DNA of 64,000 nucleotides, from positions 2,382 through 66,381 of IMG/VR virus record IMGVR_UViG_3300045988_133913; one strand, given 5' to 3'. Shown in pieces: positions 4,007 to 21,546 of the stretch (positions are counted from its first letter, which is position 1; every line of letters starts with the position of its first letter). Made by a program: the position numbers and the translations under genes. Below the pieces are notes generated by a model. The model did no database searches and was not told where the DNA came from. It saw nothing but the letters and a program-made list of their open reading frames with translations. Origin of the DNA: a virus.

Positions 4007-4903
4007 ATGCCACGCTCTGACAATGACGGGATGAACTTCGACGACCTGTTCGGCAAGTGGGGCGGGAAGCCTGACAAGAACGGGAAGAAGAAAGATACGA
4101 CGCCGAAAGTTCCGGCGGATAACCCTGCGTGCAAAAACACCGGGGTCACGGATGAAGGGATAGAGCAGTCTTCCCGCTGGAAGTCCATGCTGTCTGCCGC
4201 CATCATGGCGTACAACACATGGAATAGCCTGCGCATGGCGAAGTTGCAGCGCGACCTCGCCAGAAAATATTTGCAGATGAGCAAAGACCATCGCAAGTAT
4301 TACAACGACCGCTTCAAGCCGCTGGAGAAAGACCTCACCAAAGAAGCGCTGAAGCTGAAGAAGTATGAGCGCGACAAAGAGCCGCTTTATACCGGGCAGA
4401 TGCTGGTAAGCGTGCGGGGGAAGAACGCGGGTCAGATTGACAAGGCGGTGTCCTGTACGGGGCGCTACTGCACCGGGCAGCGAGCAGCCATCATAACCGA
4501 CCAGCTCCTCAAGCAGGCGACCCAAGAGAGCCTCGCTGCGGGCATGGCGCATCGCTACACGGACAAGGAAGAAATCGTCCACAACAATCTGCGGTGGGAC
4601 AAGCGCGAACAAGTGCTGAAAATCGGGCGCGACATCCCGGCGCAGGCGTCCAGCTTTGCTCAGCTCGCCGCTGGAATTTTCGGCGACCTCGGCACGCAGG
4701 CTGGCAAGGCAGCGGAAGGCGCGATGAGTTTTATCGCCTACGAGAGCAACCGTGCGCAGACACAGTACCCACCGCGACGGGGGGATATGCAGGTGAGCAG
4801 CTACCGCTACAATCCTACACCGCTTGAGGAGTTCAAGCCGAAGCCGCCGGATGTGTACGTGAAGCCGGAAGAACCGACGCAGACCATAAAAGTGATGGGG
4901 TGA
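4007..4903 (+). CDS. virion/internal protein, tandem paralog 1
   Basis: 298 aa. The C-terminal region (AAGIFGDLGTQAGKAAEGAMSFIAYESNRAQTQY) is shared with the next gene. Confidence 0.6.
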   Translation: MPRSDNDGMNFDDLFGKWGGKPDKNGKKKDTTPKVPADNPACKNTGVTDEGIEQSSRWKSMLSAAIMAYNTWNSLRMAKLQRDLARKYLQMSKDHRKYYNDRFKPLEKDLTKEALKLKKYERDKEPLYTGQMLVSVRGKNAGQIDKAVSCTGRYCTGQRAAIITDQLLKQATQESLAAGMAHRYTDKEEIVHNNLRWDKREQVLKIGRDIPAQASSFAQLAAGIFGDLGTQAGKAAEGAMSFIAYESNRAQTQYPPRRGDMQVSSYRYNPTPLEEFKPKPPDVYVKPEEPTQTIKVMG

Positions 4904-4906
4904 TAA

Positions 4907-5830
4907 ATGAGCGGATTACCAGTCGTTGTAACCACCGGTAGGCTTGAGCGGGTAAATGACGTTTCCATCAAGGCGTTCCCTTGCCCGAAGGTAAACGACA
5001 AGGGGCTGACGGGAGCTTGGTGGTGGGCAGATAAAATCGCCATCGCGGTTGCGCTATGGGCTACCTACGAGACATGGAAGGCGGCGAAGGAAGAATACAA
5101 AATCGGCAAGGACTACTACGACCTTGCGAAAGAACAATGGGATTTCTTCCTCGAAAACTACCGCCCGCTGGAAGACCAAGAGCTGTCAGAGATATGGGCA
5201 GAGCCTCCCTACGAGCCAGATTACCCCAAATCCATCGCAGGGCATACCAACACCATAGACAAGGTTTTCGCCGCCGCAGAACGTCATAGGAGCGCCCTCA
5301 CGGATAAATATTGCGTCTGCCCCGACGTGTCGATGTTCACCAAGACCGACATCATGAAATCAACCGTGCGCGGCGACTCTGATAACTTCGGTCGTCGCTA
5401 CGCCGAGAAGCTGGCGCAGGAGAAGAACGACATCCGCTGGCAGCGACGCATATCGACCGCCAGTCGTGGACGCAACCTGCTATCCGAGAGCGCCTCCCTC
5501 GCCAGCAAGGCGGCAGGGCTGTTCGGGGACTATGCTAAGGCGATGGGCAACGTAGCATCAGGGGCAATGGCGTTTTCCGGCTACGTGAACAACCGGATGC
5601 AGACGGAATACAACCCGGTGCGCCAACGCATCAACGCCCGTGCTGATGTGCCGAATACTTACCGGGGATTCGACGCACAGGCTTACTGGGGCGACGGCAG
5701 CCGGATGCTGGAGAACACTCCGCGCGGGGGCATTTCGTGGCAGCAAGCGGAAGCCAACGCACCCTACGATGGCGCGGGTGGGGTTGCAGGTTACGACCCG
5801 ACAGGATATGCTTCCGCTTCAATGAGATAA
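4907..5830 (+). CDS. virion/internal protein, tandem paralog 2
   Basis: 307 aa. The C-terminal AAGLFGDYAKAMGNVASGAMAFSGYVNNRMQTEY aligns with the preceding gene. Confidence 0.6.
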   Translation: MSGLPVVVTTGRLERVNDVSIKAFPCPKVNDKGLTGAWWWADKIAIAVALWATYETWKAAKEEYKIGKDYYDLAKEQWDFFLENYRPLEDQELSEIWAEPPYEPDYPKSIAGHTNTIDKVFAAAERHRSALTDKYCVCPDVSMFTKTDIMKSTVRGDSDNFGRRYAEKLAQEKNDIRWQRRISTASRGRNLLSESASLASKAAGLFGDYAKAMGNVASGAMAFSGYVNNRMQTEYNPVRQRINARADVPNTYRGFDAQAYWGDGSRMLENTPRGGISWQQAEANAPYDGAGGVAGYDPTGYASASMR

Positions 5831-5842
5831 GGGGACGAAATA

Positions 5843-7174
5843 ATGTACATACCAGATTTATTCGGCGCGTTCATGAAAGGCAAGGAATATGCTAACGACC
5901 GTAACTGGAATGACCTCAAGCAGTATGAAGCGGTAGAAGCCGCTCGCAACGCCAACGACCTTTCCTCGCTGGATATTCTGGGGCAGCGGGCGCAGTTCGG
6001 TGGCAAGATGAGTGTTTTCCAGAACAACGTGGATAACTCCGCACGGGCAAACGAGGTTGCCGAAGCCGCGCAGCCGGGGCTACTTGCCAACGCCAGCACA
6101 GGTAGCATGATTCAGATGGACCAGCGCAGCGCGTTTATGAACAACCGCGACGATTACCAGACCATGCTGAACAACACAGCCCAAGCCAATATCGGTAAGG
6201 GCATCGACGCGGCGGCGGTGCAGATGGGCGCTAACGATTACCTGACGCCTGAACGTGCCGCGCAGATGGGTGGCTGGCGCGGGGAGGACATTTACAACAC
6301 GGCGATGTCCAACAACATCACCACAGGTCATGCGCCAACGGTTGCCGCGCAGGGCGTCGTAACGAATGACAAGCTGTACGATAATAATCTGCTAGGCTTG
6401 GACTACGACCGTGATGTGCTGGAAGGGAATATCAAACGCCAGCCCGTAATCGGTGCTATTAAAGACCGCAACGCCGCCAACCAGTACGCCGACGCGAACA
6501 CCTACCTGACCGACAAGGCGAAGTTAGTGCAGCGAGAGAACCAGCGCCAGCGACAAGGGCTTCTGAACACGATTAGCAACCTCCAGCGCCAGCGTGCAGC
6601 ATTTGCCGCCGACCCGATGATGGCAGGGCAGGTGCAGGAACTCACGCAACAGATAGCCGAGTATCAGGCAGAGCTTCAGCGACTGACTGGGGGCGAAACA
6701 GCGGATGTGTACATCACCGCGCCGGGTCAGGCGATGGCGACGGTGCGCAGCCTCGTGCCGGGCGGGCAGGTGTACCAGCAGGGGGTTGGTCCGCGACCCC
6801 TGCAAGGACAGGTCATCATGCCGCCCCCGCAGCCTGCGCAGCAGCCCGTGCAACAACCCCAATCCGCACCGCAAGCCGCTATTGACCCCAAAGTTCATTC
6901 GCAGAACGTGGAAGCCAAGATGGCGTACGTTGCCGACAAGCAGGCGCAGGGTACGTATGACCCGAACGAAGTCATCATGATTGACGGTGTCCCTTACACC
7001 GCAGGGCAGCTTGTGTACCTCCAGAACGTTCAGCCTAGTATGACAAGCACCGTAGCAGAAGGGGTATCTATGGGGCTGCTAGGGCCGGTGGGTTACGCCA
7101 GCCAGTATTTGCTCGGGACTAATCCTGCGTATGCCCGGCAAATCGCGGCGGCACGTGCAGCAGCGGGGCGGTAA
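5843..7174 (+). CDS. internal virion / ejection protein candidate
   Basis: 443 aa, Gln/Asn/Ala-rich with a Q/P-rich stretch. It lies between the paralog pair and the hydrolase-like gene. Confidence 0.5.
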   Translation: MYIPDLFGAFMKGKEYANDRNWNDLKQYEAVEAARNANDLSSLDILGQRAQFGGKMSVFQNNVDNSARANEVAEAAQPGLLANASTGSMIQMDQRSAFMNNRDDYQTMLNNTAQANIGKGIDAAAVQMGANDYLTPERAAQMGGWRGEDIYNTAMSNNITTGHAPTVAAQGVVTNDKLYDNNLLGLDYDRDVLEGNIKRQPVIGAIKDRNAANQYADANTYLTDKAKLVQRENQRQRQGLLNTISNLQRQRAAFAADPMMAGQVQELTQQIAEYQAELQRLTGGETADVYITAPGQAMATVRSLVPGGQVYQQGVGPRPLQGQVIMPPPQPAQQPVQQPQSAPQAAIDPKVHSQNVEAKMAYVADKQAQGTYDPNEVIMIDGVPYTAGQLVYLQNVQPSMTSTVAEGVSMGLLGPVGYASQYLLGTNPAYARQIAAARAAAGR

Positions 7175-7177
7175 GTT

Positions 7178-8065
7178 ATGGCACGGAGGAAGGGGAATAC
7201 CAACGAATCGCGCAACATGAGTATGGTGTTGCAAGCGTTTCAAAATGCCGGGTTGTCGCCAAACCAAGCGCGGATTCTCGCCGCCGAGGTGGGGCGGGAA
7301 AACGCATTCCAAGACCGCTACCTGTGGGGGTATCACAAAGACCCCGGAAACGGCGCGGTCAATCTGGGGATTATCTCGTGGCAAGGCACACGCGGACGGA
7401 ATCTGGAGAAACAGCTTGCGGCACAAGGGCTGATTAAGAACGGGGTGATGGAGCAGTCACAACGCGCGCTGGATGCACAAGCGCGCTTTTTGGTAAACGA
7501 GATAAAGAACGACCCTGCCTACGCCAAGACCAAAAAGCTGTTTCTGTCCAACCCGAACGTGGACTACAACACAGGCGTCCGGGTGCTGGGTAAGGACTTT
7601 ATCCGCTGGCGCATCGACGACCCGAAGTACGCTGCCAAAGGCGCGGCGTCCCGTGACGGTTTTTATCGGAAGCTAGGCGGGGTAGCCCCGCAAGATGGTG
7701 GCGTGGTGCAGACAGGAGCGTCTGCGCCCTCCGTAGCGCCGCTTATTCCGGCGTCTGGGGCGATAAACGCAGCAGCCAATACCGTGAATGACCTGATGGC
7801 ACAGAACGCTCCCCAGAGCGACCTGATGGGCAAAAACGTGCTGGCTGGCAGCGTAGGCTTCGCCGTTCCAGAAACACCTTTGCAGAACAAACTGTACGGC
7901 GAGGTCGCAGAACAAGGCTTACCGCCGCAGAAAGAATCCATCGCGGCGGTGGCGGCTGATACCATCTCGAAAACTTACGACCAGATGTTTAACCAACCTT
8001 TGGTAAAATCCTCCAGTCCTAGCATCGACGCGCTGATGCAAATCTTTAACGCTCTGGAAGTCTGA
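7178..8065 (+). CDS. putative virion-associated peptidoglycan hydrolase (lysozyme-like, GH108-like DPG motif)
   Basis: The N-terminal segment AAEVGRENAFQDRYLWGYHKDPGNGAVNLGIISW resembles the E...Y..DPGG..K.GI signature of GH108 muramidases, with looser spacing. The gene sits immediately upstream of the giant virion protein. Confidence 0.35.
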   Translation: MARRKGNTNESRNMSMVLQAFQNAGLSPNQARILAAEVGRENAFQDRYLWGYHKDPGNGAVNLGIISWQGTRGRNLEKQLAAQGLIKNGVMEQSQRALDAQARFLVNEIKNDPAYAKTKKLFLSNPNVDYNTGVRVLGKDFIRWRIDDPKYAAKGAASRDGFYRKLGGVAPQDGGVVQTGASAPSVAPLIPASGAINAAANTVNDLMAQNAPQSDLMGKNVLAGSVGFAVPETPLQNKLYGEVAEQGLPPQKESIAAVAADTISKTYDQMFNQPLVKSSSPSIDALMQIFNALEV

Positions 8066-8067
8066 TA

Positions 8068-11000
8068 ATGGCGAAGAACAATTCTCTCGAAACTCCCCTC
8101 TCCATGCCTAAACTGCCTGACCTCGACCAAGACCTGTTCGGCGCGGGCGCAGGGGCGATATTCAACCAGTCCGATGACCTGCTCAACCCGAAGGCGGTAG
8201 CGCCTCTGGGGGCGCAGCAAGGCAAACTTTCTCCGGCTGCACAGGCGCTGGCATCGGCACAGCGTGAGCAGAACGACCTGCTGAACTACGCGACTGAACA
8301 GCAGGCGAAAATCCAGCAGCAGGAAGCCCGCCAACAGGCAGCGTTTGACCGTCAGCAGGCGGCACAGCGCCGGGAAACCGACGCGGCTATCCGCCAGTAT
8401 CAGCGGGACAAAAAGGAGCGCGAGAAGGCGCTGAAAGAGAAAGCGAAGGAACAGGGCGGTGTGCTAGGCGCTGGCGCGGATGGTTCGTTTGTCCTGAAGC
8501 CGATGGTTGAAACCATCCTAGCTGATAAGAATTGGAAGGACATCAAGTCCAGCTTCCAGCGCGAGGACGAGGCGCAAGGCTGGCTGAAAGAAAAAGCCGT
8601 TCAGTTGAAGGAGCAGGGCATCCCCGAAGACCTCATCAACAACGAGCTGCGGGTGGCTGGCGCGCTGTTCAAGCAGGATACGGACGCCTACACCAAGCAG
8701 CGTTCGGAAGACCGTGCTGACCCGCTCGATGCGGTTTCATGGCTAGGTAAGGCAGGGCGCAACCTATACAAAGGCACGGTGCTGTGGCTATCCCCGGTAT
8801 GGAACAAAACCATCGGCAAAACGGGGCTTACTTTCGACACGGAGGAGTTTGTCCGCGAACAGAATGACGCGATAAATTCCATTGATTCAACGTTGTCCGA
8901 CAAGATTCACTTTGCCCAAGAGAACAACGAATACCTGACCCAGAAACGCCGGGCGCAGGGTAAGGACGGACTTGTTGCAGGATTCACAGGCGGCATCGCC
9001 GATATGTGGAAAGCGGACAATATGCTTTACACCATGCTGGACTCCGCCGCTTACATTCCTTACTCCGCCGCTGTAGGCGCGAGTGCGGGGGCGTTTGCTT
9101 CTCGCGTCGGCGCGGCTACTCGTCTTACCCCGGCGATTGAAGGTATTACCGCGCGGGTAAACGCCGCTGCGGCTGCACCGGGTGCAAGTCTCGCGACGCG
9201 AATCGGCGCTAAAGCGGCTTCTCACCTGTTATCTTCCGAGGTAGCGGGTGGTATGGCGACTACCGGGTTCTTTGCCGCCACGGACGCCGCTGGTGGCGCA
9301 TACGACGCCGTTTACAACCAAGACGAGGACACCTTCCGCCAGACCTACATCAAAGCAAACGGCGAGGAAAACTGGAACAACCTCGTGCAGTATTACGGCT
9401 CTGCGGGCAAAGCACGTGCAGCGCTCGCAGAACAGGCTGCGGTATCGGCAGGTAATTCCGCCTTCATAAACACCGCGCTGCTAGGCGCTGCCGGTTTGGA
9501 AACTACGCTGCTCAAGGCGAACAAGTTTGGGCTTCAGACGTTTGCGGGCAAGCGCTTGGCGACGGCTGGCGCTAACTCCGTGTCTGAACTCCTCGAAGAA
9601 GGCTTGACGCAATATTCACAAAACGTCGGCGCGCAGCCTGCGACTGGCGTGGATTTGCTGGAAGGCGTGCCGGAAGCAGCCGCTATCGGTTTCGTCGCAG
9701 GCGGCTCGATGGCAGGCGGTACGCAGGTGCTTGGTGCGCTAGGCAAAGGCGTAAAAAACTACGTCGCTCCAGAGTTCGATGCAGCACGGCTTGACCCTAC
9801 GCAGTACGTGCATCAGAATCAGTTGGACTACGACAGCTATCGGCAGGTGGTCGGGCGCGAGATGGACAACATCGCACGCACCGGACGCCGGGCTAAGTGG
9901 CACGAAACTGACATCGGCTCTGCGCAGCAGATGGCGTATGACACGATAATCGACGACCCGTCCAAGTGGGAATCCTTTACGCCAGACCAGCGCGCGCAGA
10001 TGCAGGAGTACCTGAAGCAAGCCTACAACATCAACACCAACCCGTATGCCCAAGTGGAGCGTCAAACGCTGACTGACATTTGGGAGAATGGCGACACGCA
10101 CGTACTGAATGCTTGGCTGCAAAGCGAGGAAAAAGGCATCGGCGAGGACATACGCAACGCCTTCCGTGTCAAGCACGGTGTCGAGTTAGAGAACGTGCCG
10201 GATGGTGTGCGCGCCTACTCTGAAGCGCTGGCTAACGCTATCGACTACCAGATTGCCGCCCCGGTACTACGCGACACGAACGAGCAATGGAAGGCGATGC
10301 GGGATTACGTCAAGACCCAAGTCGAGACTAACCCGACGCTCACCCGCGAACAGCAGAAAGGCATCGACGCCATTCTCGCTAATTACCTCGATGCAGGTCG
10401 TCGTCGCTTGACCGATGAGCAAGTCGCGGCGGCACAATCACAACCGACAGGACAACCCAATGAGCCAGCAAATACCGGCGCAGGACAAGGCGCGCCTACT
10501 GAAAATACTCAACCAGTCGCAGGAGAAAGCGGTGCAGCTCCGGCAGCAGGAGCAGGAAGCACAGGCGGAGAAACCCAAAGCGTGGGGCAGCCTGACGCTG
10601 CACCGGCAGGAGGAGTTAATCCTCAAGGCGCTGGAGTCGATAATGCACAGCAAGGAAATCAGCCCGGCGGTGGGACAGACGCTCCCGCCCAAACTGTTCA
10701 GCCTGCTGGAGGAGCAGCGCAAGCACCTGCATCTGGGGCGCAGCCGGGAGTTACAGCCCCGGTTGGAAATGCTGGTCAAACGGCTGCGGGACAAAGGGCT
10801 GCTGGACAGACCAGCGCAACCGGACAACCCGCTCAACCGATTAACCCCGGCGCAGCGCCGCAGGCAGGAAGCAGCGGAGGCGTTGGAGCTGCGACGCCAG
10901 AACGCAATCCAAATGGTGGAAGCAACCAAGCTGCTACCCAAGCGGTCGGTGTAACGGGCGCTTATAGCCCGCAGGCTGATTTACGCGATGCTAGTCATGC

Positions 11001-14000
11001 GTGGGCACAGTTATCCAAAGCGCAAAAATCAGCTCTCGCGAAAATTGGCATCAGCACCCCGGCGCAGTTGCTGGATATTCTGAAAAACGACGACACAGTC
11101 GCCGAAGCCGGGCAACGTCTGGCGCGGACTGGTCGCGTGCGCAGCATGACGATGAAGTCGGTGCAGGACGCGCTGAAAGCCGCCCGTGACTACATCACGT
11201 CGCCAGAGTGGGTGTTTAACAAGCTGACCCAAGACCAGCTCGGGCTTAGTGCCAACGAGGCAAGTATCCCCGCGGCGGTCGCAGCGCTTCAGGCAAGCGA
11301 CGAAATTACCGCACGGAAAATTAGCCAGCTCGCCAAAGGCGCGGCGGAAATCTACGGGCTGGAGGACGCCTCTAAGGAAGACAAAATCGCCTACGCAGCC
11401 AAGCTGCTGCTTGACATCGCACAGCTCGCCAAGACCTCACCACAGCTATTAGATGTGGCGATGCGGCTCAAGGGCGCGCCGGAATCGTGGTTTCAGGACG
11501 ACGTTGACAAGCTGCTGAAGAACGACATCTGGGCGACGCTCCAGTCTGCACCGGGCATTTTTGAACAAGCCGGGGTGGACTTCAGCCAGTCCCGCCCGAA
11601 CGTCACCCAGTCACAGCAGAATCTCTGGTCGGCGCGTGCGGTATTGTTCACGCTGAAGCAGAACATCAAGGCAGGCGATGCCAGAAGTAAAGCGGTTCAG
11701 GCAGGGCTGGATAAAGCCGCCAAGCGCATCACCGACATGGGCGGCGAAAAAGGACGCCTCTCGCTGCTGTTTTCGATGCTGGAAGCCGACAGCCGGGGCG
11801 AAGACCTGACAGGTTTTCTGGAAAACTACTACATCGGTTCGCGCGCTTCGGCAGATGCTATCGCGGGCGTTATCCGCGCGTATCAGGATGCGAAAACCTA
11901 CATGGCATCCCCCGACTTCCAGAACAGCCTGCGGGCGGATAACTGGCTGCGGCAGGCGGACAAGTCGGTTTACGTGCAGGCTATCCGCGATTATGTGCGC
12001 AATAATTACGCAGCATTCAACCAGATGCTGATTCAGGATGCCGAAGTGGCGTCTGGCAAGAGCGCCCGCACGCGCGTCGCTGGCACGAATTTTGAAACGC
12101 AGGCAGTAAACACCGACATTCTTGCCGACGTACTGGCTGATGTGGTGCATAACACCGCACGCCTCGGACGGGAGTATGCAGGCGAGATTGCCCGCTCCTA
12201 CGCCGGACGGGATGAAAACGGCAACCGGGTTATCAAGCCGTCTGCGGTCAAGCGTTTTCTGGAACAAGCAGATACCATCGCAGCTAACCTTCGGCAGCAG
12301 TATCTGGACGGTAAGCTGGCGCAACAATCCACCCAGCCTGAAGACGAGTCCGAGCAGTTGGTACAACAGGGCGACGACCTTTCCCGCCTGATGGAGGAGT
12401 TCAACGCCGGGCAGCAACCGGATGCCGACGCGGTCATGGGCGACCTCGACGACGCCGTTCGCGGCATTCCGGCGCAGCCGCGCAATGGTGAGAAGCAGAT
12501 TAAAAACGGTGGCTTCGACAGCCCTGAAGCGGCAGAAGACGCGCTTTCCCCGGAGTTGTTCCAGCACCCGGAAACGGTGGAAGAACTCGATACGCTGTTG
12601 CGGTCCATCGCAGAAACAACTGGGCTAGACCCGCTGCTGGTCGGCGAGTATATTGCTCGTGAGTGGTTGAGCCAGTCGGAAGAAGACTACGCAGATGCGT
12701 CAACAGACGAACTGCTGGACATGGTGTACGACGCGGCTAACGATATTTGGATTTACGTTGGAGAACAGAATGCAACACAACAAATTGCAGATACAAAACG
12801 TCTCGAAGGACCTCGCTCGATTACTGCCGACGGACGGCGCATCACGCGACAATCTCAAGACCCTACTGGGTCACTGGCAAGAGCGTTACAGCCGAACCTC
12901 TCCGGCGGCGCATACGCACAGCTAGCCCGTCCTAGCCAGCCTGCCCCGGTGCGACTTGCGATAGCACCTGTCGAGGAGATTGTTGCCGAGTTCGGCGGGC
13001 AGGAGTTCTCCCTCGCTGAGATTATCGAGAATACCGAAAACCAGCGGGGAGACCGTTCACCCACGCTAGGCGAACTCGCACCGGAAGATAACAACGCCCC
13101 GCGCCCGGTTATCGAACTGACGGTAAATGGCGTGAAGCACCGGGGCAGGCTATTCCGCTGGCGTGACCGCAAGAACGGTCGTAATCGTCGTCATGTGGTG
13201 TTTGTCCACGACGGCGACGCTTTCGGTATGCGTGGGTGGGACGATAAGTGGATAGACTTTGGTAATGCTGTTACCCGCAAGCGTGTGGACAGCATCAACC
13301 AAAACGACGGCATCCGCATCGAGGTGCTGGCAGACCAATCTGAAAATCAGGAGCAAACAAATGATAAAACCGAGAAACGTACTCAGCGAACTGGGCGCAG
13401 CGAGACCGAGGATGAAAACAATTCAGGAATCGTGGGGGACGTTCGAGATGCCGATGTCGCCGCGCGAGGAAGCGACAACACGGATGCGCGAGCTGATGAA
13501 TCCGAGCAGGACGAAGGTTCTGGGCAGTCCGATGAAAGTGAACGCGGAAGTGGAGCGGCTGAAGGACGACTAGAAACCCCTGCGCCCGTAGATGTTCCGC
13601 AGGGGCTAGACTACACCCCCGAGCAGGTAGCAGAAATTGACCCGGCGTCGCTTACGGCGGATGAGCGTGCAGCACTTAACCGCCAAGACGATACGAGCGA
13701 GTTTATTGCTAACGCCCTCTACGACATCGAGGGCGCGCTGGAAGATTTCGGTGGGGAAGATTCTGCCGCCCTGCGCAGCGGGCTTGCCAAAATGGCAGCG
13801 CTGCTGGCAGACCCTGCTGCGCCAAGACGGGCTACGCCGACGACGGTTACCGAACAAGCCGCCGGGCGCAAAGAGGTTGCCGACATTATCACCGACGAGG
13901 AGCGCGACATTCTCGACGCCTACCTCGAAGACGTCGGTAACACCGAGCAGAGCGCGGAGGAGTTTGCCGAAGAAGCCATCGCCGACAACCAGTTCGAGGA

Positions 14001-17000
14001 TAGCAGCCTGCCGAAGAAAGTCCGCGCTGTGCTGGAGCGTATCTGGAACGCGCTGCGCAACGGCATGGCGGCTGTCTCGATGGCGTTGGCGGTTCACCTC
14101 GGCTCAAGTATGGTCGTCAGCCAGCCTGCCGAAGCCGCGAACCTCACTCCGCAGGCAGGCGAGGTGGTTATGAGCAGCGCTGCCAAAGCGTCGCTAGACC
14201 ACATCATCGACACCGCCGACAACGGTGGACGCCCGTTTGTGATTGCCGACAAAAAGGCGGGCAAGCTGTACCTGATGAACGCCGAGGGCAAGGTGGTGGA
14301 CACCACTCCGGCGCTGTTTGGCAAGACGCCTTCCGACGCCGCGAAGACGGCGGGTGCTACGGGTGCGGGCAAATACGACCTGACCTACAACCGCGACACC
14401 CGTCTGCCATCCGGTTACGCGGGCAGCGTGCAGTCGTTCGACACCGGAGCAAATGGCGAGCAGTTTGCCATCCACCGTGTTATTGACGTCAAGGGGCAGA
14501 ACCGTCAGAGCCGACTGGATAGCAAGACCGTCCGCGACAACCGCATCACGCTTGGTTGTATCAACGTTCCGGCGGAGTTCTACGACGCCCACCTAGACAA
14601 CGAGCTAGGCGCGGTGCTGTACGTGTTGCCGGAAACCGCTAACTGGGGTGGCGACCTGTATGGCAAGACCCCCCGTCAGTCTGCACAGCCGACGCCACAG
14701 GCGGTTAAAATCGCAACCGAGGGTACTTCCCTTACCCCAGAGCAGTTACTGGCTGCAACGCGCTCTCAGGCGGATAATCTGATAGCGAACGTACGTGGCA
14801 ACATGGACAACGCCAGCTACCAGCCTGTGCAGGTAACACCCGAACAGTTACAGGCGGCGACGGAAGCCGGGCGGAAGGTAACGACCCAACCTGTGCAGGC
14901 GCAAGCGCCCATCCAGATTGCGGGCGTCCAGCCGTCCACGCAGACCGCCTATATCAGTCCGGTCATGGTAAACGGTGTATCCGCTAACACCCTTGTCGTG
15001 CCGTTCGAGGCGCATACCCCTGCCGAGATGCAAGCAAATGGCGTGTTCGACACACAGCCTGTAGGTAACAAGACCGAGAGTGGGGATAGCCTGTACACCA
15101 TCGCGTCGTGGCTGGCTGCCGCGTTCGCTGCGGGCAAGGTGAATAGCCGTCGCAAGAAGCGTCTGGAGAGCCGCAAGAAAGCCAACGAGGAACGGTTGGC
15201 GCGGATTGAAGCGAAGAACAATCCAGAGCTGAAGTCTGAACCGGAGGACACTTCCGTCGTTCCAGACGAAGCCGAGGTGGAAACCGCCGTCGCCGACAAC
15301 CACGACGTGCAGGCAGCCTTTGCGAAACAAGCCGGTACACACAACCCGCAGACGCCGCTGTCGCAGGCGGTCGCGCAGGCTGTGCGCCAGCAGAACGTGC
15401 TGGAGAATAAAGCCGATTGGATTCATGCATTCGCGATGCGGTATTCCAGCGATGAGGCGCAGTACCAGCAACTGCTCGCCACGATGGGCAATTTCGAGTA
15501 CAACCTCGGTGGTGTGCTGACCGACCGCTCTTACACCCAGAGTGGTGACTTCCGTGACCGCAGGCGCTGGCGCGGCGACCAGACTGATGCAAGCCGTGTG
15601 GGGATGTTGCAGGCGTTCATGCGCTTCGCAGGCGGGGCGACGGTTGCGTTCGATAATCTGTTGCACCGTGTCGGGTCTGCCGCGTTCGGACACGAAGCCG
15701 ACAGCGCCATCGCCAGCAAGATGCTCTCGCAGGTACGCGCCAAGTCGTCCGGGGCGTATGCGCAGCTACACAAGACGCTCATCCACCCACTCGTCATGCA
15801 GACCGCCACGCTTGCCAGCCAGATGCGTCGGGGTCACGGCGAGATTGAAATCGACACCGGCAGAACCGCCACGCTGAACCACATCCTCAACGAAGGCGCG
15901 GAGCAGATGTGGAAAGGTGCAGAGCTGGAAATCGCCAAGATGAAGCTGGACTTGCAGGAGGTGGAAGCGCAAATCCGTTCTACCGCTGCCGGGTCGCAGA
16001 TTCAGCAGACGTGGACGAGCAAGCAGTTGCAACTGCTGAAGGACATCGAAGCCGCCCAGACACTCCTAGACCGCCAGCGCGATATGTACTACGGGCGCGA
16101 GGAGTGGGACGGCACGACTGACCTGCCGGGTGGTTACACCGAGGCGCAGGCTAAGACCGAGCTGCAAGCGCTCAAGGATAAATACGGGGAAGACTTCGCC
16201 AAGATTGAAGCGCACAGCAAGGAGCTGGTGCAGACCATTCAGGGCATCCGCAACTTCGCCGCCGCTGCTGGGGTAGTAACCAACGACCAGCTAGCGATGT
16301 ACAACGAGATGGGCTTCAAGGAGTACGTACCGCTGTATTCGCCGCAGGAAGATGTATCCAAGACTGACGAAAGCATCAGCATCATGCAGACCTCCCGCAT
16401 GGACAGACTGCTGGAAGGTATCCCGCTGGCACAGGCGAAGTCGATGGGGCTGACCCGCGACCTCTCCCGCTTTAAGCGTAAGGGCGCAACCAGCCCGGCG
16501 GAAGACGCTTATACCAACATGAAGGTGTATGCGATGAACACCGCAGGACGTGTGGGGCAGCAGGGCTGGTTGCAGGCGGTGCAGCAGCTCTACGAAGGCA
16601 CAATCGGCAAGCCGTACTCCGTGGCGGGTAACCTCGGCGAAGAAACGCTAAAAGAGCTGAACAGCCAGCCGGAAGGCAAGCTGCCGGGGCTGATTCGTGT
16701 GCGTCCGGGTATGGAGGATTACCTGCCTGCCCACTTGCAGACCGCCATCGCAGCACCGGGTGGACGCATCCGCGCTATCCGCGCCAAGGGCTACAACAGC
16801 GCAGGCGAGCTGGTGGACTACCACTACTACTTCACGGACAAGGCAATCCAGCAAGAGGTTTACTACACCTCGGACACCAGCGAGAGCTTCATGATGCGTA
16901 TCGGGCGCAACGCCGGGACAATTACCCGGTTCGCCGCGCGGATGATGACTACCTTCCGCCCCGTCTGGAACGTGTACAACTGGGTGCGGGACAGCATCGA

Positions 17001-18762
17001 GCGGATAAGCATTATGATTGCCCGCCCGGTCAAGGACAAAAACGGTGACCTCATCAACCGCTGGACGCTTGCCAAGACCTACGCATCGCACCTCGCGCGT
17101 CTCGCTTCCAGTCTGGAGGCGCAGAACGAAATTATGCGCTACCTCTCCACAGGCGAGCTGGTGACAGAACTTCAGCGCACGCTGGATGAAGCCGTCGGGG
17201 AAGGTGCAATAAACCTGATGACGACCCAGACGGACAAGCACTCCGTGATGAGCGACCTGCGCAAGTCCGACCTTGACCGCCTGCTGGATACCACCTCAAG
17301 GATGCTTGGCACGACGGCAAACAAACTGGGTGTCGGTCAGGGCAAGGCATGGCTAGGGGATATTGCCGAATACTACGTGCAGCGCATGACGGAAGTGCCG
17401 CAGGTAACGACGGCGCTGGCGTCTTATCTGGCGTACCGCGAACTTGGCGTGAACAAGCACGAGCGCGCCAACCGGGTGCGCGACCAGTATGACCCGACCC
17501 GCACCCGCAGCGAGATTGTGCGCGGGCTATCTACCATGTACCCATTCGTGCGTTCCACCTTCTCCGGTCACTACAACCTGATGCGGACGCTGAGTGAATA
17601 CTGGAATCCCGGCGAGCGTGGCTTCACCACCCTGTACCTCGCTGGCGGCACTGCTGCCATGATGGCAATCCTTGCCCTCGCCGCAGGCGCTATCGGCGAC
17701 GACGATGACGGTGTGCCGCTGGTTGCCCGTATGCCCATCGGTACACTCATGAACGGCATCCCCATCCGCACGCCGGATGGTGGTGTCTGGAGTGCGCCTG
17801 TAGGCTTCGGGATGCCCAAGCTGATGTGGGGGACGGCGGTCAACCTTTACCGCCTCGCCTACGGCGAACAGAGTGCTTCTGACATGAGCCGCTCCATGCT
17901 AGGACTGGTGATGGACAACACCTCACCTGTGCAGGTGGCAAGCGGCGCGGCGTTCGACCGCGATGTGGGCGCGGGCGCGGCGCTTAGTTTCGCCCCGCTG
18001 CTGGCTGTGCCGTTTGTCGAGATGATGACAAACACGAAGGCATACACCGGGCAGAAAATTTACAACCGCGAAACGCCCAGAGGCGAACGTGATGCCGACC
18101 AAGGTGGGTTCAACATACCGGAAGCCTACAAGGACACCGCACAGACTCTCACCGGCATGGGTATCGACGTGCGCCCGGAAACGCTCAAGCACCTGCTGGA
18201 AACATTCAGCTATGGTCCGCTCAAAGCGATACCGACCTCCCTGCTGGCGGACAAGTCCGAGAAGTACCTCGGCAACCGCGAGACGAAAGGGGAAGCCGCA
18301 GGCGCGCTTGTTACCGCTATCGGGATGGACATGGCGTGGTCGCCACACGCGCTGGACGACGAGGCGCGGGTGTACCAGATGCTCGACGATATTTACCCTA
18401 TCTTGGGGAGATACGGCATTACCGAAATCTCGCACGACAAGAGCGAATACAAGCGCTTCGGTATCGAGGGGCGGGAGAACCGCAAGGCACGTCTGCTATA
18501 CGCCAAGATGGTCGCCGCTGGCGCACCAGAGTGGGAAGCGTCCTTTGTCCGCGACGCGGTTATGCACAAGACCTCGCGCCAGAAAGCCATCAAGGAGTTC
18601 CAAGCAGGGTCGGAAGCCTACCTGAAAGCGAAGGCTAACGGGGAGGAAAACGAACAACTGCGTGCAGCCCTTGAAAACCAATGGAATGCCATCGAAAATA
18701 GCGACCAGAATTTCCTACGCCAATACAACGAAGACGCCTATGAGATGCAAGACGACTACTAG
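8068..18762 (+). CDS. giant (3564 aa) virion-associated multidomain protein
   Basis: A single 10.7-kb uninterrupted ORF whose ATG is 2 nt after the upstream stop. It has an N-terminal coiled-coil and Gly/Ala-rich segments, a P/A/G/Q low-complexity linker, an acidic block, an internal hydrophobic segment and an L,D-transpeptidase-like segment. Its size class matches N4 gp50 or Bcep22 gp75. No T7-like RNAP motifs were recognised by eye. Confidence 0.85.
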   Translation: MAKNNSLETPLSMPKLPDLDQDLFGAGAGAIFNQSDDLLNPKAVAPLGAQQGKLSPAAQALASAQREQNDLLNYATEQQAKIQQQEARQQAAFDRQQAAQRRETDAAIRQYQRDKKEREKALKEKAKEQGGVLGAGADGSFVLKPMVETILADKNWKDIKSSFQREDEAQGWLKEKAVQLKEQGIPEDLINNELRVAGALFKQDTDAYTKQRSEDRADPLDAVSWLGKAGRNLYKGTVLWLSPVWNKTIGKTGLTFDTEEFVREQNDAINSIDSTLSDKIHFAQENNEYLTQKRRAQGKDGLVAGFTGGIADMWKADNMLYTMLDSAAYIPYSAAVGASAGAFASRVGAATRLTPAIEGITARVNAAAAAPGASLATRIGAKAASHLLSSEVAGGMATTGFFAATDAAGGAYDAVYNQDEDTFRQTYIKANGEENWNNLVQYYGSAGKARAALAEQAAVSAGNSAFINTALLGAAGLETTLLKANKFGLQTFAGKRLATAGANSVSELLEEGLTQYSQNVGAQPATGVDLLEGVPEAAAIGFVAGGSMAGGTQVLGALGKGVKNYVAPEFDAARLDPTQYVHQNQLDYDSYRQVVGREMDNIARTGRRAKWHETDIGSAQQMAYDTIIDDPSKWESFTPDQRAQMQEYLKQAYNINTNPYAQVERQTLTDIWENGDTHVLNAWLQSEEKGIGEDIRNAFRVKHGVELENVPDGVRAYSEALANAIDYQIAAPVLRDTNEQWKAMRDYVKTQVETNPTLTREQQKGIDAILANYLDAGRRRLTDEQVAAAQSQPTGQPNEPANTGAGQGAPTENTQPVAGESGAAPAAGAGSTGGETQSVGQPDAAPAGGVNPQGAGVDNAQQGNQPGGGTDAPAQTVQPAGGAAQAPASGAQPGVTAPVGNAGQTAAGQRAAGQTSATGQPAQPINPGAAPQAGSSGGVGAATPERNPNGGSNQAATQAVGVTGAYSPQADLRDASHAWAQLSKAQKSALAKIGISTPAQLLDILKNDDTVAEAGQRLARTGRVRSMTMKSVQDALKAARDYITSPEWVFNKLTQDQLGLSANEASIPAAVAALQASDEITARKISQLAKGAAEIYGLEDASKEDKIAYAAKLLLDIAQLAKTSPQLLDVAMRLKGAPESWFQDDVDKLLKNDIWATLQSAPGIFEQAGVDFSQSRPNVTQSQQNLWSARAVLFTLKQNIKAGDARSKAVQAGLDKAAKRITDMGGEKGRLSLLFSMLEADSRGEDLTGFLENYYIGSRASADAIAGVIRAYQDAKTYMASPDFQNSLRADNWLRQADKSVYVQAIRDYVRNNYAAFNQMLIQDAEVASGKSARTRVAGTNFETQAVNTDILADVLADVVHNTARLGREYAGEIARSYAGRDENGNRVIKPSAVKRFLEQADTIAANLRQQYLDGKLAQQSTQPEDESEQLVQQGDDLSRLMEEFNAGQQPDADAVMGDLDDAVRGIPAQPRNGEKQIKNGGFDSPEAAEDALSPELFQHPETVEELDTLLRSIAETTGLDPLLVGEYIAREWLSQSEEDYADASTDELLDMVYDAANDIWIYVGEQNATQQIADTKRLEGPRSITADGRRITRQSQDPTGSLARALQPNLSGGAYAQLARPSQPAPVRLAIAPVEEIVAEFGGQEFSLAEIIENTENQRGDRSPTLGELAPEDNNAPRPVIELTVNGVKHRGRLFRWRDRKNGRNRRHVVFVHDGDAFGMRGWDDKWIDFGNAVTRKRVDSINQNDGIRIEVLADQSENQEQTNDKTEKRTQRTGRSETEDENNSGIVGDVRDADVAARGSDNTDARADESEQDEGSGQSDESERGSGAAEGRLETPAPVDVPQGLDYTPEQVAEIDPASLTADERAALNRQDDTSEFIANALYDIEGALEDFGGEDSAALRSGLAKMAALLADPAAPRRATPTTVTEQAAGRKEVADIITDEERDILDAYLEDVGNTEQSAEEFAEEAIADNQFEDSSLPKKVRAVLERIWNALRNGMAAVSMALAVHLGSSMVVSQPAEAANLTPQAGEVVMSSAAKASLDHIIDTADNGGRPFVIADKKAGKLYLMNAEGKVVDTTPALFGKTPSDAAKTAGATGAGKYDLTYNRDTRLPSGYAGSVQSFDTGANGEQFAIHRVIDVKGQNRQSRLDSKTVRDNRITLGCINVPAEFYDAHLDNELGAVLYVLPETANWGGDLYGKTPRQSAQPTPQAVKIATEGTSLTPEQLLAATRSQADNLIANVRGNMDNASYQPVQVTPEQLQAATEAGRKVTTQPVQAQAPIQIAGVQPSTQTAYISPVMVNGVSANTLVVPFEAHTPAEMQANGVFDTQPVGNKTESGDSLYTIASWLAAAFAAGKVNSRRKKRLESRKKANEERLARIEAKNNPELKSEPEDTSVVPDEAEVETAVADNHDVQAAFAKQAGTHNPQTPLSQAVAQAVRQQNVLENKADWIHAFAMRYSSDEAQYQQLLATMGNFEYNLGGVLTDRSYTQSGDFRDRRRWRGDQTDASRVGMLQAFMRFAGGATVAFDNLLHRVGSAAFGHEADSAIASKMLSQVRAKSSGAYAQLHKTLIHPLVMQTATLASQMRRGHGEIEIDTGRTATLNHILNEGAEQMWKGAELEIAKMKLDLQEVEAQIRSTAAGSQIQQTWTSKQLQLLKDIEAAQTLLDRQRDMYYGREEWDGTTDLPGGYTEAQAKTELQALKDKYGEDFAKIEAHSKELVQTIQGIRNFAAAAGVVTNDQLAMYNEMGFKEYVPLYSPQEDVSKTDESISIMQTSRMDRLLEGIPLAQAKSMGLTRDLSRFKRKGATSPAEDAYTNMKVYAMNTAGRVGQQGWLQAVQQLYEGTIGKPYSVAGNLGEETLKELNSQPEGKLPGLIRVRPGMEDYLPAHLQTAIAAPGGRIRAIRAKGYNSAGELVDYHYYFTDKAIQQEVYYTSDTSESFMMRIGRNAGTITRFAARMMTTFRPVWNVYNWVRDSIERISIMIARPVKDKNGDLINRWTLAKTYASHLARLASSLEAQNEIMRYLSTGELVTELQRTLDEAVGEGAINLMTTQTDKHSVMSDLRKSDLDRLLDTTSRMLGTTANKLGVGQGKAWLGDIAEYYVQRMTEVPQVTTALASYLAYRELGVNKHERANRVRDQYDPTRTRSEIVRGLSTMYPFVRSTFSGHYNLMRTLSEYWNPGERGFTTLYLAGGTAAMMAILALAAGAIGDDDDGVPLVARMPIGTLMNGIPIRTPDGGVWSAPVGFGMPKLMWGTAVNLYRLAYGEQSASDMSRSMLGLVMDNTSPVQVASGAAFDRDVGAGAALSFAPLLAVPFVEMMTNTKAYTGQKIYNRETPRGERDADQGGFNIPEAYKDTAQTLTGMGIDVRPETLKHLLETFSYGPLKAIPTSLLADKSEKYLGNRETKGEAAGALVTAIGMDMAWSPHALDDEARVYQMLDDIYPILGRYGITEISHDKSEYKRFGIEGRENRKARLLYAKMVAAGAPEWEASFVRDAVMHKTSRQKAIKEFQAGSEAYLKAKANGEENEQLRAALENQWNAIENSDQNFLRQYNEDAYEMQDDY
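10440..10950 (+). repeat. low-complexity Pro/Ala/Gly/Gln-rich linker-coding region inside the giant gene
   Basis: Translation is TGQPNEPANTGAGQGAPTENTQPVAGESGAAPAAGAG...QAGSSGGVGAA. This produces long shadow ORFs in other frames. Confidence 0.6.
14050..14650 (+). other. internal hydrophobic segment plus L,D-transpeptidase-like (YkuD-like) domain within the giant protein
   Basis: MAAVSMALAVHLGSSMVVSQPAEAANL is a TM/signal-like stretch. It is followed by FVIADKKAGKLYLMNAEGKVV...FAIHRV...ITLGCINVP, which resembles the His/Cys catalytic motif (H...S.GCIRM) of L,D-transpeptidases. Confidence 0.4.
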
Positions 18763-20681: not shown

Positions 20682-21025
20682 ACTACAAACCCTATATTTA
20701 CGCCGCTGCCTGCCTGTTCATGCTCTGGTGTGGCTATGATGCTGGCAAAACCGTGGGTCGGCAGGATATGCAGAAAGAAGTCCACGCGGCAAAGCTGGAA
20801 GTGGACAACATGAAGCGCCGGGCGCAGGAGATGGCAGACAACCACGCGAAGCAGATGAGTGCCGCCAGCAAGATGTATCAGGAAGTACGTGCAGAAGCCG
20901 AAGCTAAACAGAAAGAAAGGATTGTAAAAGTGCGGGAGATTGTGGAGAAGCCCGTGTACCGTAGCGACTGCATCGACAAATCAGGGTTGGATGAAATCAA
21001 CAAGGTAATTGGAGGAAGCAAATGA
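20678..21025 (+). CDS. i-spanin (Rz-like)
   Basis: N-terminal TMD (YIYAAACLFMLWCGY) followed by a charged coiled-coil periplasmic domain, 115 aa. It is in lysis-cassette context. Confidence 0.6.
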   Translation: MNYKPYIYAAACLFMLWCGYDAGKTVGRQDMQKEVHAAKLEVDNMKRRAQEMADNHAKQMSAASKMYQEVRAEAEAKQKERIVKVREIVEKPVYRSDCIDKSGLDEINKVIGGSK

Positions 21026-21546
21026 ACGAACTCGACTGGATTGCCGAAGGGCGCAAACTCATCGGCGTGGAAGAAAACGCCAACACCTCTAAGGTCGTCG
21101 CCATGTGGCGCGATGGCTTCGAGGCGTCGGGACAAGCCGGGCGGATGAAAGAGTCCGTGTGGAATACTGGCAGCACGCCGTGGTGCGGAGGCTTCGTCGC
21201 CGCCTGCCTCGCCCGTGCAGGTCTGGGCAAGCACGTGCCGAAAGACTTTCCGCTTGCGCGTGCATGGGCTAAGGTAGGCACACCGCTCTCTAAGCCCGCG
21301 TATGGCTGCGTGGTCGTCTTTACACGCGACGGTGGGGGTCACGTTGGCTTTGTCGTCGGTAAGGACACTAAGGGCAACCTGATGGTGCTAGGCGGCAATC
21401 AGGGCAACCACGTCTGCATCAAACCGTTCAGCAAAGCGCGCGTGCTGGCGTATCGCTGGTGCGGGCAGACAGGCGCACCTGCACAGGGTCGGTACGACCT
21501 ACCGCTACTGTCGTCGGATGGCAAGGTGAGTACGAATGAAGCGTAG
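21022..21546 (+). CDS. endolysin, Cys/His (NlpC-P60/CHAP-like) peptidoglycan hydrolase
   Basis: STPWCGGFVAACL with a Cys and GGHVGFVVG with a His are typical of a Cys-His papain-fold cell-wall hydrolase. ATGA overlap with the spanin. No signal or SAR segment. Confidence 0.55.
   Translation: MNELDWIAEGRKLIGVEENANTSKVVAMWRDGFEASGQAGRMKESVWNTGSTPWCGGFVAACLARAGLGKHVPKDFPLARAWAKVGTPLSKPAYGCVVVFTRDGGGHVGFVVGKDTKGNLMVLGGNQGNHVCIKPFSKARVLAYRWCGQTGAPAQGRYDLPLLSSDGKVSTNEA

Follow-up and report, generated by a model that had tools for sequence, protein, structure and literature searches.

A predicted YkuD-fold cysteine/histidine module within a giant, presumably ejected phage protein

We examined a 64,000-nucleotide stretch of viral DNA (IMG/VR record IMGVR_UViG_3300045988_133913, positions 2,382 to 66,381; hereafter "the window") with respect to an enzyme-like domain that lies in the middle of a giant protein of 3564 residues. 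Residues about 2035–2198 of this protein are predicted to form a Cys/His domain of the YkuD (L,D-transpeptidase, LDT) fold; several independent lines of evidence agree on this assignment and place the domain in a divergent subfamily. We consider it reasonably likely that the module is an active periplasmic enzyme that acts on peptidoglycan stem peptides and is used at phage entry.

An initial annotation, made from the letters of the window alone, had described an L,D-transpeptidase-like segment behind a hydrophobic segment in a giant virion protein. The fold, the conservation of the His/Cys pair, and the upstream helix were all found in the present analysis. Upon translation, all of the strings quoted in that annotation proved to lie in a single frame of the open reading frame (ORF) 8068–18762 (+): MAAVSMALAV begins at residue 2000 (nucleotide 14065), GKLYLMNAEGKVV at residue 2065 (nucleotide 14260), FAIHRV at residue 2133, and ITLGCINVP at residue 2160. 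The spacer between the last two had been given as 26 residues; we counted 21, with the His and Cys residues 28 positions apart.

Fold and active site of the domain

Does this segment adopt the YkuD fold? When it was compared with the Pfam profile PF03734 (YkuD), residues 2057–2169 aligned with profile positions 3–128 of 146 (E-value 2.8e-4, 21.9 bits); the whole 3564-residue protein scored 18.1 bits in the Pfam scan. Matches at the same profile positions were found for 18 of 41 aligned family members at E ≤ 0.01 (best E-value 2.1e-4), and the corresponding module of a distant phage giant protein (locus L008) reached 25.9 bits, above the gathering score of PF03734. A sub-threshold match to PhdYeFM_antitox (E-value 0.002) was rejected as noise: it overlaps with the initial strands of the domain, and only one of the 41 members showed it.

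The initial annotation had proposed that the fold be checked with AlphaFold. We built an AlphaFold2 (AF2) model from the 41-sequence family alignment. The predicted local distance difference test (pLDDT) scores of its core were 87–95 at model residues 41–100, and they were 75–86 around the strands that carry His (E145–149) and Cys (E175–179). In a Foldseek comparison with the PDB, the best 50 matches to this model were all proteins of the L,D-transpeptidase fold, which places the model among the YkuD beta-sandwiches. The family profile was also aligned, using hhalign, with Bacillus subtilis YkuD, whose reference sequence was verified against 2MTZ and 1Y7M. Four family motifs fell on their YkuD counterparts: PFVIVDK on the first YkuD strand, TPAGRF on TPTGEF, the family His on His123, and RISYGC on AVSKGC139.

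The predicted active site is likewise conserved. In a 115-sequence alignment, F2057, D2061, K2062, G2085, D2090, T2098, A2100, G2101, H2136, R2146, R2149, D2157, R2159, G2163, C2164, I2165, and N2166 each occurred in 90% or more of the phage members and in 90% or more of the bacterial ones. The signature of His followed by (S/T)xGC that had been noted initially was borne out in part: the window motif, H2136-R-V-(22 aa)-T-L-G-C-I, agrees with the (S/T)xGCh portion of the published LDT motif, HXX14-17-(S/T)HGCh (PMC9638812), but departs from it in the spacer and in the residue at C-2.

These departures belong to a set of observations that weigh against the assignment. The 22 residues that follow HXX exceed the canonical 14–17 by 5–8, and the canonical His at C-2 is Leu in the window protein and Tyr in the family. 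The YkuD score of the segment falls below the PF03734 gathering threshold of 23.4 bits. The loop at residues 105–139 of the AF2 model is of low confidence, and the E-value of the hhalign alignment is weak (0.085), so that this alignment counts as support and not as proof. Searches of PDB sequences with either the single sequence or the family profile yielded no LDT, returning only noise at E > 0.5. NCBIfam holds no model for the domain family, although NCBI names a few of the homologues (from Variovorax, Brevundimonas, Caulobacter, and Azohydromonas) "L,D-transpeptidase". Because the sequence-only searches of the PDB and NCBIfam gave nothing, we regard the domain as an outlying, atypical YkuD subfamily.

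One feature of the active site was not remarked upon in the initial annotation: Cys2164, the predicted nucleophile, is the single Cys among the 3564 residues. The average Cys content of the 36 other ORFs of the window is 1.5%, from which about 54 Cys residues would be expected in the giant protein (Poisson P(≤1) about 3e-22). The pattern extends to related phages. Thirty-two distinct giant ORFs (90,462 residues) contain 40 Cys residues in total, 32 of which are the motif Cys, and in 26 of the 32 ORFs it is the sole Cys. In two others (L005 and L012), the extra Cys is the first or third residue of the open frame and probably precedes the true start. The giant protein of L047, which is 43% identical to that of the window, has its single Cys inside the YkuD module. 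That one Cys position has been kept in proteins nearly purged of cysteine is a strong argument that the thiol is very likely used.

These data bear on whether the module could be a pseudoenzyme, i.e., a non-catalytic peptidoglycan-binding or purely structural unit. The deviant motif (longer spacer, no His at C-2) and the score under the Pfam threshold would fit such a module. However, about 115 divergent sequences have kept the His, Cys, and Asn, and the sole-Cys pattern in nearly Cys-free giant ORFs argues for a thiol that is chemically needed; we therefore deem a pseudoenzyme very unlikely. Judging from its conserved catalytic residues, the His2136/Cys2164 domain is predicted to be catalytically intact.

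Distribution of the module and its membrane topology

A 227-residue segment of the protein was searched against a database of 5.8 billion proteins and had 88 homologues, with E-values down to 7e-21. A profile search, which ran on 1.84 billion cluster representatives, returned 2040 representatives at E ≤ 1e-3 and 602 at E ≤ 1e-30. Given these homologues and cluster matches, the motif is not due to chance. The best 150 of the profile matches were all proteins of 176–589 residues, and the aligned homologues are about 200–300 residues long, with a hydrophobic N-terminal segment that can be read as a Sec signal peptide. As predicted from these sequences, the subfamily comprises about 2040 clusters, mostly of small, secreted, signal-peptide-bearing bacterial proteins. 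Three of the stand-alone bacterial homologues were inspected in their chromosomal surroundings, which were ordinary and variable and contained no type VI secretion system (T6SS), immunity gene, or prophage. One of them, P0066 of Brevundimonas sp. SL130 (locus L048, CP113064.1), directly follows a gene for a ShlB/POTRA two-partner-secretion transporter and an 817-residue ORF without Pfam matches; resolvase genes are also nearby, and none of these features occurs in the other two contexts. P0066 may belong to a locus that is mobile or that encodes a secreted toxin.

Scanning IMG/VR with the family alignment returned 35 loci. At 33 of these, the match is located midway in an open frame of 1393–5524 residues (complete frames, 2100–5500 residues); the other two are small stand-alone ORFs. 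In a rough neighbour-joining tree, the latter clustered with the bacterial forms, and the giant-embedded modules formed separate deep clades. The unit of hydrophobic helix plus domain was the sole region detectable by BLASTP that the window protein has in common with 28 distant giant ORFs. Because the loci were retrieved via the domain, their sharing of the module is expected; the informative part is that nothing else is shared. In comparison with the protein of L005, a 64%-identical relative, the module is 84–89% identical and its flanks 51–57%, values that point to purifying selection on the module. We also asked whether, in some relatives, the module has given way to another wall hydrolase; the single relative added (L047, 3221 residues, found via the C-terminal region) has the YkuD module as well.

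The neighbours of the module within the giant proteins vary. In the 3374-residue giant ORF of L034 (L034:4814-14935), an ART-PolyVal domain (E-value 1e-20) comes straight after the YkuD module, a weak GNAT match lies ahead of it, and LPD38 is near the C-terminus. From this combination, the module appears to be one bead in variable effector strings. Two marine-type giant ORFs (L015 and L018) have an HExxH motif (AHEVAGHFGL and LHEVGVHVGL, respectively) about 160 residues after the catalytic Cys, which is probably a zincin-like processing peptidase of the kind typical of polyvalent proteins.

Another possible role is autoprocessing: the YkuD-like module might act as a cysteine peptidase on the giant polyprotein of which it is part, as zincin metallopeptidases have been proposed to do in other polyvalent proteins. 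Iyer et al. (PMC5512222) argue that polyvalent proteins need processing, and the Pfam scan of the window giant protein revealed no recognisable processing peptidase. On the other hand, the homologues of the module are bacterial, small, and secreted, and they have nothing to process; the L015 and L018 proteins carry HExxH right behind the module in addition to it. Further, we know of no YkuD-fold enzyme that cuts ordinary L,L peptide bonds. Self-processing is thus the least probable of the roles that we considered.

The initial annotation had also pointed to a helix resembling a transmembrane segment or signal peptide ahead of the domain, and this was corroborated: the helix MAAVSMALAVHLGSSMVV, which starts at residue 2000 (nucleotide 14065), is the strongest Kyte-Doolittle peak of the protein (1.63 over 19 residues), and residues 2000–2023 are helical in the AF2 model (pLDDT 85–90). 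The anatomy of a signal peptide is present, with an n-region (KKVRAVLERIWNALRNG), an h-region (MAAVSMALAVHLGSSMVV), and a c-region (SQPAEA|A), followed by a short linker and the YkuD domain. Nonetheless, the segment is located 2000 residues from the N-terminus and, for that reason, is not a true N-terminal signal peptide. An internal start at Met2000, giving rise to a separately secreted protein, was considered and rejected: no convincing Shine-Dalgarno sequence lies upstream, and Met is absent at this position in other phages. Every giant ORF has a hydrophobic helix after a basic amphipathic stretch, 165–224 residues upstream of the catalytic Cys, and, in alignment with the stand-alone homologues, the phage helix lines up with their N-terminal signal peptides. 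This colinearity and the retention of the helix in all giant ORFs support an extracytoplasmic site of action.

A second hydrophobic stretch, LYTIASWLAAAFAAG (residues 2342–2356), occurs 178 residues past Cys2164 and is followed by a densely basic cluster, KVNSRRKKRLESRKK. Both elements are also found in L005, L047, and L008, at 115–178 residues after the Cys across the clade. The sequence suggests that residues 2342–2356 may form another helix that spans the membrane, so that the YkuD domain would lie in a loop on the periplasmic side. Based on the basic flanks and the positive-inside rule, the arrangement would be a hairpin with both flanks in the cytoplasm. Counting against the generality of this topology, the hydropathy scan showed the putative second membrane helix to be absent from more distant clades.

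Predicted activity at phage entry and its alternatives

Proteins of the YkuD fold are known to perform several reactions: cross-linking of peptidoglycan, attachment of proteins to it, L,D-carboxypeptidase cleavage (Csd6 of Helicobacter pylori, Pgp2 of Campylobacter jejuni, Bd1075 of Bdellovibrio, and Tlde1a), and detachment of Lpp from peptidoglycan by an amidase (DpaA, also named LdtF, of Escherichia coli). Which of these might be useful to a phage protein? We envision that, upon ejection, the hydrophobic helix (with the helix at residues 2342–2356 in the clade of the window) would insert into the inner membrane with its basic flanks in the cytoplasm, and that the YkuD domain would thereby be kept on the periplasmic side, against the sacculus. 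With His2136 as its activator, Cys2164 would then attack the L,D bond after meso-diaminopimelic acid (position 3) of a stem peptide to form a thioester. This intermediate would most likely be resolved by water, or the enzyme may work on cross-linked or protein-linked stems. Its activity would then be that of an L,D-carboxypeptidase, an L,D-endopeptidase, or a peptidoglycan–lipoprotein amidase, comparable to Csd6, Pgp2, Bd1075, DpaA, and Tlde1. As an outcome, the wall might be locally remodelled or untethered where the ejection conduit crosses it.

A hydrolytic role, i.e., cutting or untethering, is predicted to be the most likely one for an entry protein, and the present computations do not separate hydrolysis from transfer. 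The periplasmic facing of the module, its substrate, and the direction of the reaction are features that we infer. One biochemical consideration speaks against a stem-peptide enzyme in this setting: L,D-specific enzymes cannot cut the 4-3 (D,D) cross-links that predominate in most Gram-negative walls, and the value of such an enzyme for making a pore is consequently not obvious.

A transfer reaction would have different consequences. As a true transpeptidase, the module could act as a staple, covalently joining the ejected protein to the peptidoglycan and thereby anchoring a trans-envelope conduit. The chemistry would involve either a long-lived thioester at Cys2164 or passing of the stem to an amine group in the phage protein, in the manner of LdtA-C and Lpp. 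We hold this to be unlikely. Stapling is without phage precedent, it would need donor tetrapeptides at the entry site, and we identified no conserved acceptor Lys or N-terminus; moreover, hydrolytic members of the YkuD fold match the domain equally well. Quite improbable, too, is the specific version in which the transpeptidase staples the giant protein to the sacculus as an anchor for the DNA conduit, together with the related notion that a host signal peptidase cuts the internal A-E-A site. Were either true, stapling or signal-peptidase processing of an injected polyprotein would be a previously unknown step of phage genome delivery.

The module might instead be an injected effector like Tlde1, one that alters stem peptides by trimming tetra- to tripeptides or by exchanging D-amino acids. 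Such changes could stop the wall from growing or the cell from dividing, or they could prevent superinfection or lysis from without. Yet the few virion copies of a membrane-tethered enzyme would change little of the sacculus, and no other part of the giant proteins is as widely shared as the module, a fact that suggests a core mechanical role and not an accessory one. An effector role, accordingly, seems to us a poor prospect, and a stem-peptide enzyme, probably hydrolytic, that helps the phage to enter is still the reading that we prefer.

Genomic setting and relation to known systems

The coordinates of the features discussed here are collected in Table 1.

Table 1. Features of the window that bear on the giant protein and its YkuD-like module.
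Feature	Position (nt)	Strand	Remarks
Internal virion protein homologue	1934-3571		Upstream of the giant ORF; phrog_511, E-value 5e-83
Giant ORF	8068-18762	+	3564 aa; LPD38-type phage polyvalent protein, presumed capsid-packaged ejection protein; one Cys
Basic amphipathic flank KKVRAVLERIWNALRNG	14014..14064	+	aa 1983-1999; like a signal-peptide n-region; from translation
Hydrophobic helix MAAVSMALAVHLGSSMVVSQPAEA	14065..14136	+	aa 2000-2023; h-region and A-E-A c-region, Sec-like
Predicted YkuD-fold catalytic domain	14170..14661	+	aa about 2035-2198
His2136 codon, predicted catalytic base	14473..14475	+	Invariant in the family alignment; in ≥90% of phage and bacterial members; corresponds to YkuD His123
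Active-site motif T2161-L-G-C2164-I-N2166	14548..14565	+	G-C invariant, I-N nearly so; corresponds to YkuD SKGC139IR
Cys2164 codon, predicted nucleophile	14557-14559	+	Only Cys of the protein
Second hydrophobic stretch LYTIASWLAAAFAAG, then basic cluster KVNSRRKKRLESRKK	15091..15180	+	aa 2342-2371; hydropathy scan
LPD38 domain (PF18857)	17776..18231	+	aa about 3237-3388; hallmark of phage-type polyvalent proteins
Lysozyme-like ORF	21022-21546		174 aa; C-terminal lysozyme part of phrog_1259 "baseplate hub subunit and tail lysozyme", E-value 6e-37; endolysin families

The identity of the giant protein is indicated by its LPD38 domain, which scored 48.3 bits (gathering score, 27; E-value 1.7e-12) when the C-terminal 875 residues were scanned alone. 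The full-length Pfam scan missed this domain; as it was seen only with the C-terminal fragment, domain scans of very long proteins can evidently lose real matches. The C-terminal homologues P0239–P0242 (44–51% identity) carry PF18857, and a jackhmmer search started from the LPD38 region of L034 did not reach the window protein. According to Iyer et al. 2017 (PMC5512222), LPD38 is found solely in polyvalent proteins of the phage type, which are proposed to be injected with the DNA. An LPD38-bearing giant protein of a podovirus, gp47 of phi24B, has been found in virions by proteomics, and its authors proposed that it is an ejection protein. In the window, the terminase, portal/adaptor, and major head genes are on the same strand as the giant ORF, setting it among virion structural genes, and the relatives of the large terminase subunit are from podoviruses (about 30–33% identity). 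From this analysis, we infer that the giant protein would be a capsid-packaged protein that is ejected during infection. The possibility of an N4-like virion RNA polymerase was also considered for it and was rejected, the Pfam scan having detected no polymerase domain in the giant protein.

Outside of the module, the giant protein resembles domains strung on flexible linkers. A long low-complexity tract rich in Gly, Ala, Gln, and Pro spans residues about 790–960, a strongly acidic tract (about 1790–1850) lies upstream of the YkuD module, and a linker rich in Gln, Pro, and Thr (about 2200–2290) follows it. Residues 1501–1700 are 74–75% identical to the L005 protein and have no match to any family.

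Some of the surrounding genes merit description. Immediately upstream of the giant gene lie two ORFs, 5843–7174 (443 residues) and 7178–8065 (295 residues), that encode no Cys at all; because this recalls the near-absence of Cys from the giant protein, their products may be co-ejected with it. The latter ORF matches phrog_6922 as well as positions 727–834 of the 4846-position giant-protein profile phrog_19273, as if it were a piece split off from the giant proteins of other phages. Farther upstream, the adjacent ORFs 4007–4903 and 4907–5830 both match phrog_37635 (E-values 1e-25 and 4e-18, respectively), which looks like a tandem duplication in the virion gene block. The lysozyme-like ORF follows several small ORFs behind the giant gene; it is probably the endolysin of a lysis cassette and can account for lysis.

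Regarding the source of the DNA, GenBank contains an 835-residue partial "hypothetical protein" (P0243) from a Cardiobacterium sp. metagenome-assembled genome that is 97% identical to residues about 1929–2764 of the giant protein (nucleotides 13855–16359). Near-identical IMG/VR contigs include one from sample 7000000285, and identifiers of the form 7000000xxx are presumably Human Microbiome Project numbers. The phage is probably a human-oral podovirus, and its host is possibly Cardiobacterium. The G+C content of the window is 55.5%.

How does the module compare with characterized systems? Relative to the YkuD superfamily (PF03734; B. subtilis YkuD, Enterococcus faecium Ldtfm, and Mycobacterium tuberculosis LdtMt2), the phage domain is sub-threshold and has the 22-residue spacer in place of 14–17; its family possesses an Arg/Asp-rich insert of its own between His and Cys (R2146, R2149, D2157, R2159), and it is embedded in a 3564-residue protein without a LysM or PG_binding partner. 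Csd6, Pgp2, Bd1075, and DpaA are, by contrast, housekeeping bacterial enzymes, for which no sequence relation to the phage domain was detected outside the active-site motif. Tlde1a, a T6SS effector of Salmonella Typhimurium, is a free toxin of small size that contains two disulfides and is paired with a cognate immunity protein, whereas the module of the phage is poor in Cys, is tethered within a giant protein by hydrophobic helices, and would act on a cell that is to be exploited.

Among phage proteins, the wall-breaching domain of T7 gp16, an ejected podovirus protein, is an N-terminal lytic transglycosylase, and mutants in it show defects at low temperature and on stationary-phase cells. 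Like that domain and the wall-directed domains of polyvalent proteins, the YkuD-like module is an enzyme domain in an internal or ejected virion protein and is presumed to be periplasmic at entry (PMC5512222); it differs from them in its fold and in its predicted target, an L,D peptide bond instead of a glycosidic or D,D bond. The peptidoglycan-targeting domains listed for polyvalent proteins are lysozyme, SpoIID-like, DD-peptidase, and zeta-toxin domains, and neither "YkuD" nor "transpeptidase" appears in the text of that survey of 131 domains (PMC5512222). The phi24B gp47 protein resembles the window protein in being giant (2811 residues), of podoviral origin, and equipped with LPD38 in its C-terminal part; LPD5, LPD1, and a MuF-C metallopeptidase are present in it as well, and, unlike the window protein, it has no reported YkuD-like module.

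The domain has surfaced before in databases. PhaLP lists 10 phage lytic proteins with a YkuD domain, and PHROGs holds the module as the unannotated family phrog_38499. In BFVD, the AF2 model matched chunks of several giant proteins of uncultured podoviruses, including A0A8S5MLI3 (Podoviridae sp. ctlpi2), which is 66–68% identical, and one protein named [quoted passage not shown]. Another match, A0A8S5MBC9, bears the machine-given name "L,D-TPase catalytic domain-containing protein"; in at least one phage protein of this kind, therefore, the domain had already been recognised by automatic annotation. Among the cultured phages of GenBank (INPHARED), neither megablast with 3 kb nor tblastn with the modules of the window and L026 gave a match, and the C-terminal 1164 residues matched only an unannotated misc_feature of Pasteurella phage Pmp11. 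Full-text literature searches returned no paper that describes a YkuD-type module, whether for ejection proteins, internal virion proteins, or polyvalent proteins, and the paper on the internal virion proteins of phage PhiGT1 contains nothing on peptidoglycan enzymes. The fold and its hydrolytic and T6SS-injected versions are thus known; what is new is a divergent YkuD subfamily that, together with a helix, is fused into giant ejection proteins. The T6SS precedent and the machine annotation temper the surprise, which for specialists in phage entry should still be some.

For short-tailed phages, the molecular detail of how the periplasm is crossed comes mainly from T7 and its close relatives, and the known tools are glycosidases and a few peptidases. 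The present analysis defines a conserved module, a hydrophobic helix plus a predicted YkuD-fold Cys/His domain, as the part that is most widely shared among the giant, presumably ejected proteins of these phages, and it would add an enzyme class to the virion-borne wall enzymes. It also brings to light a bacterial family of small, secreted, YkuD-like proteins (about 2000 clusters) that current Pfam and NCBIfam models overlook, and it takes the analogy between ejection proteins of phages and effectors of the T6SS a step further. Cys2164 offers a single-residue handle for genetics and activity-based probes. If the module should prove to be a true transpeptidase or anchor instead of a hydrolase, it would represent a new principle in phage entry.

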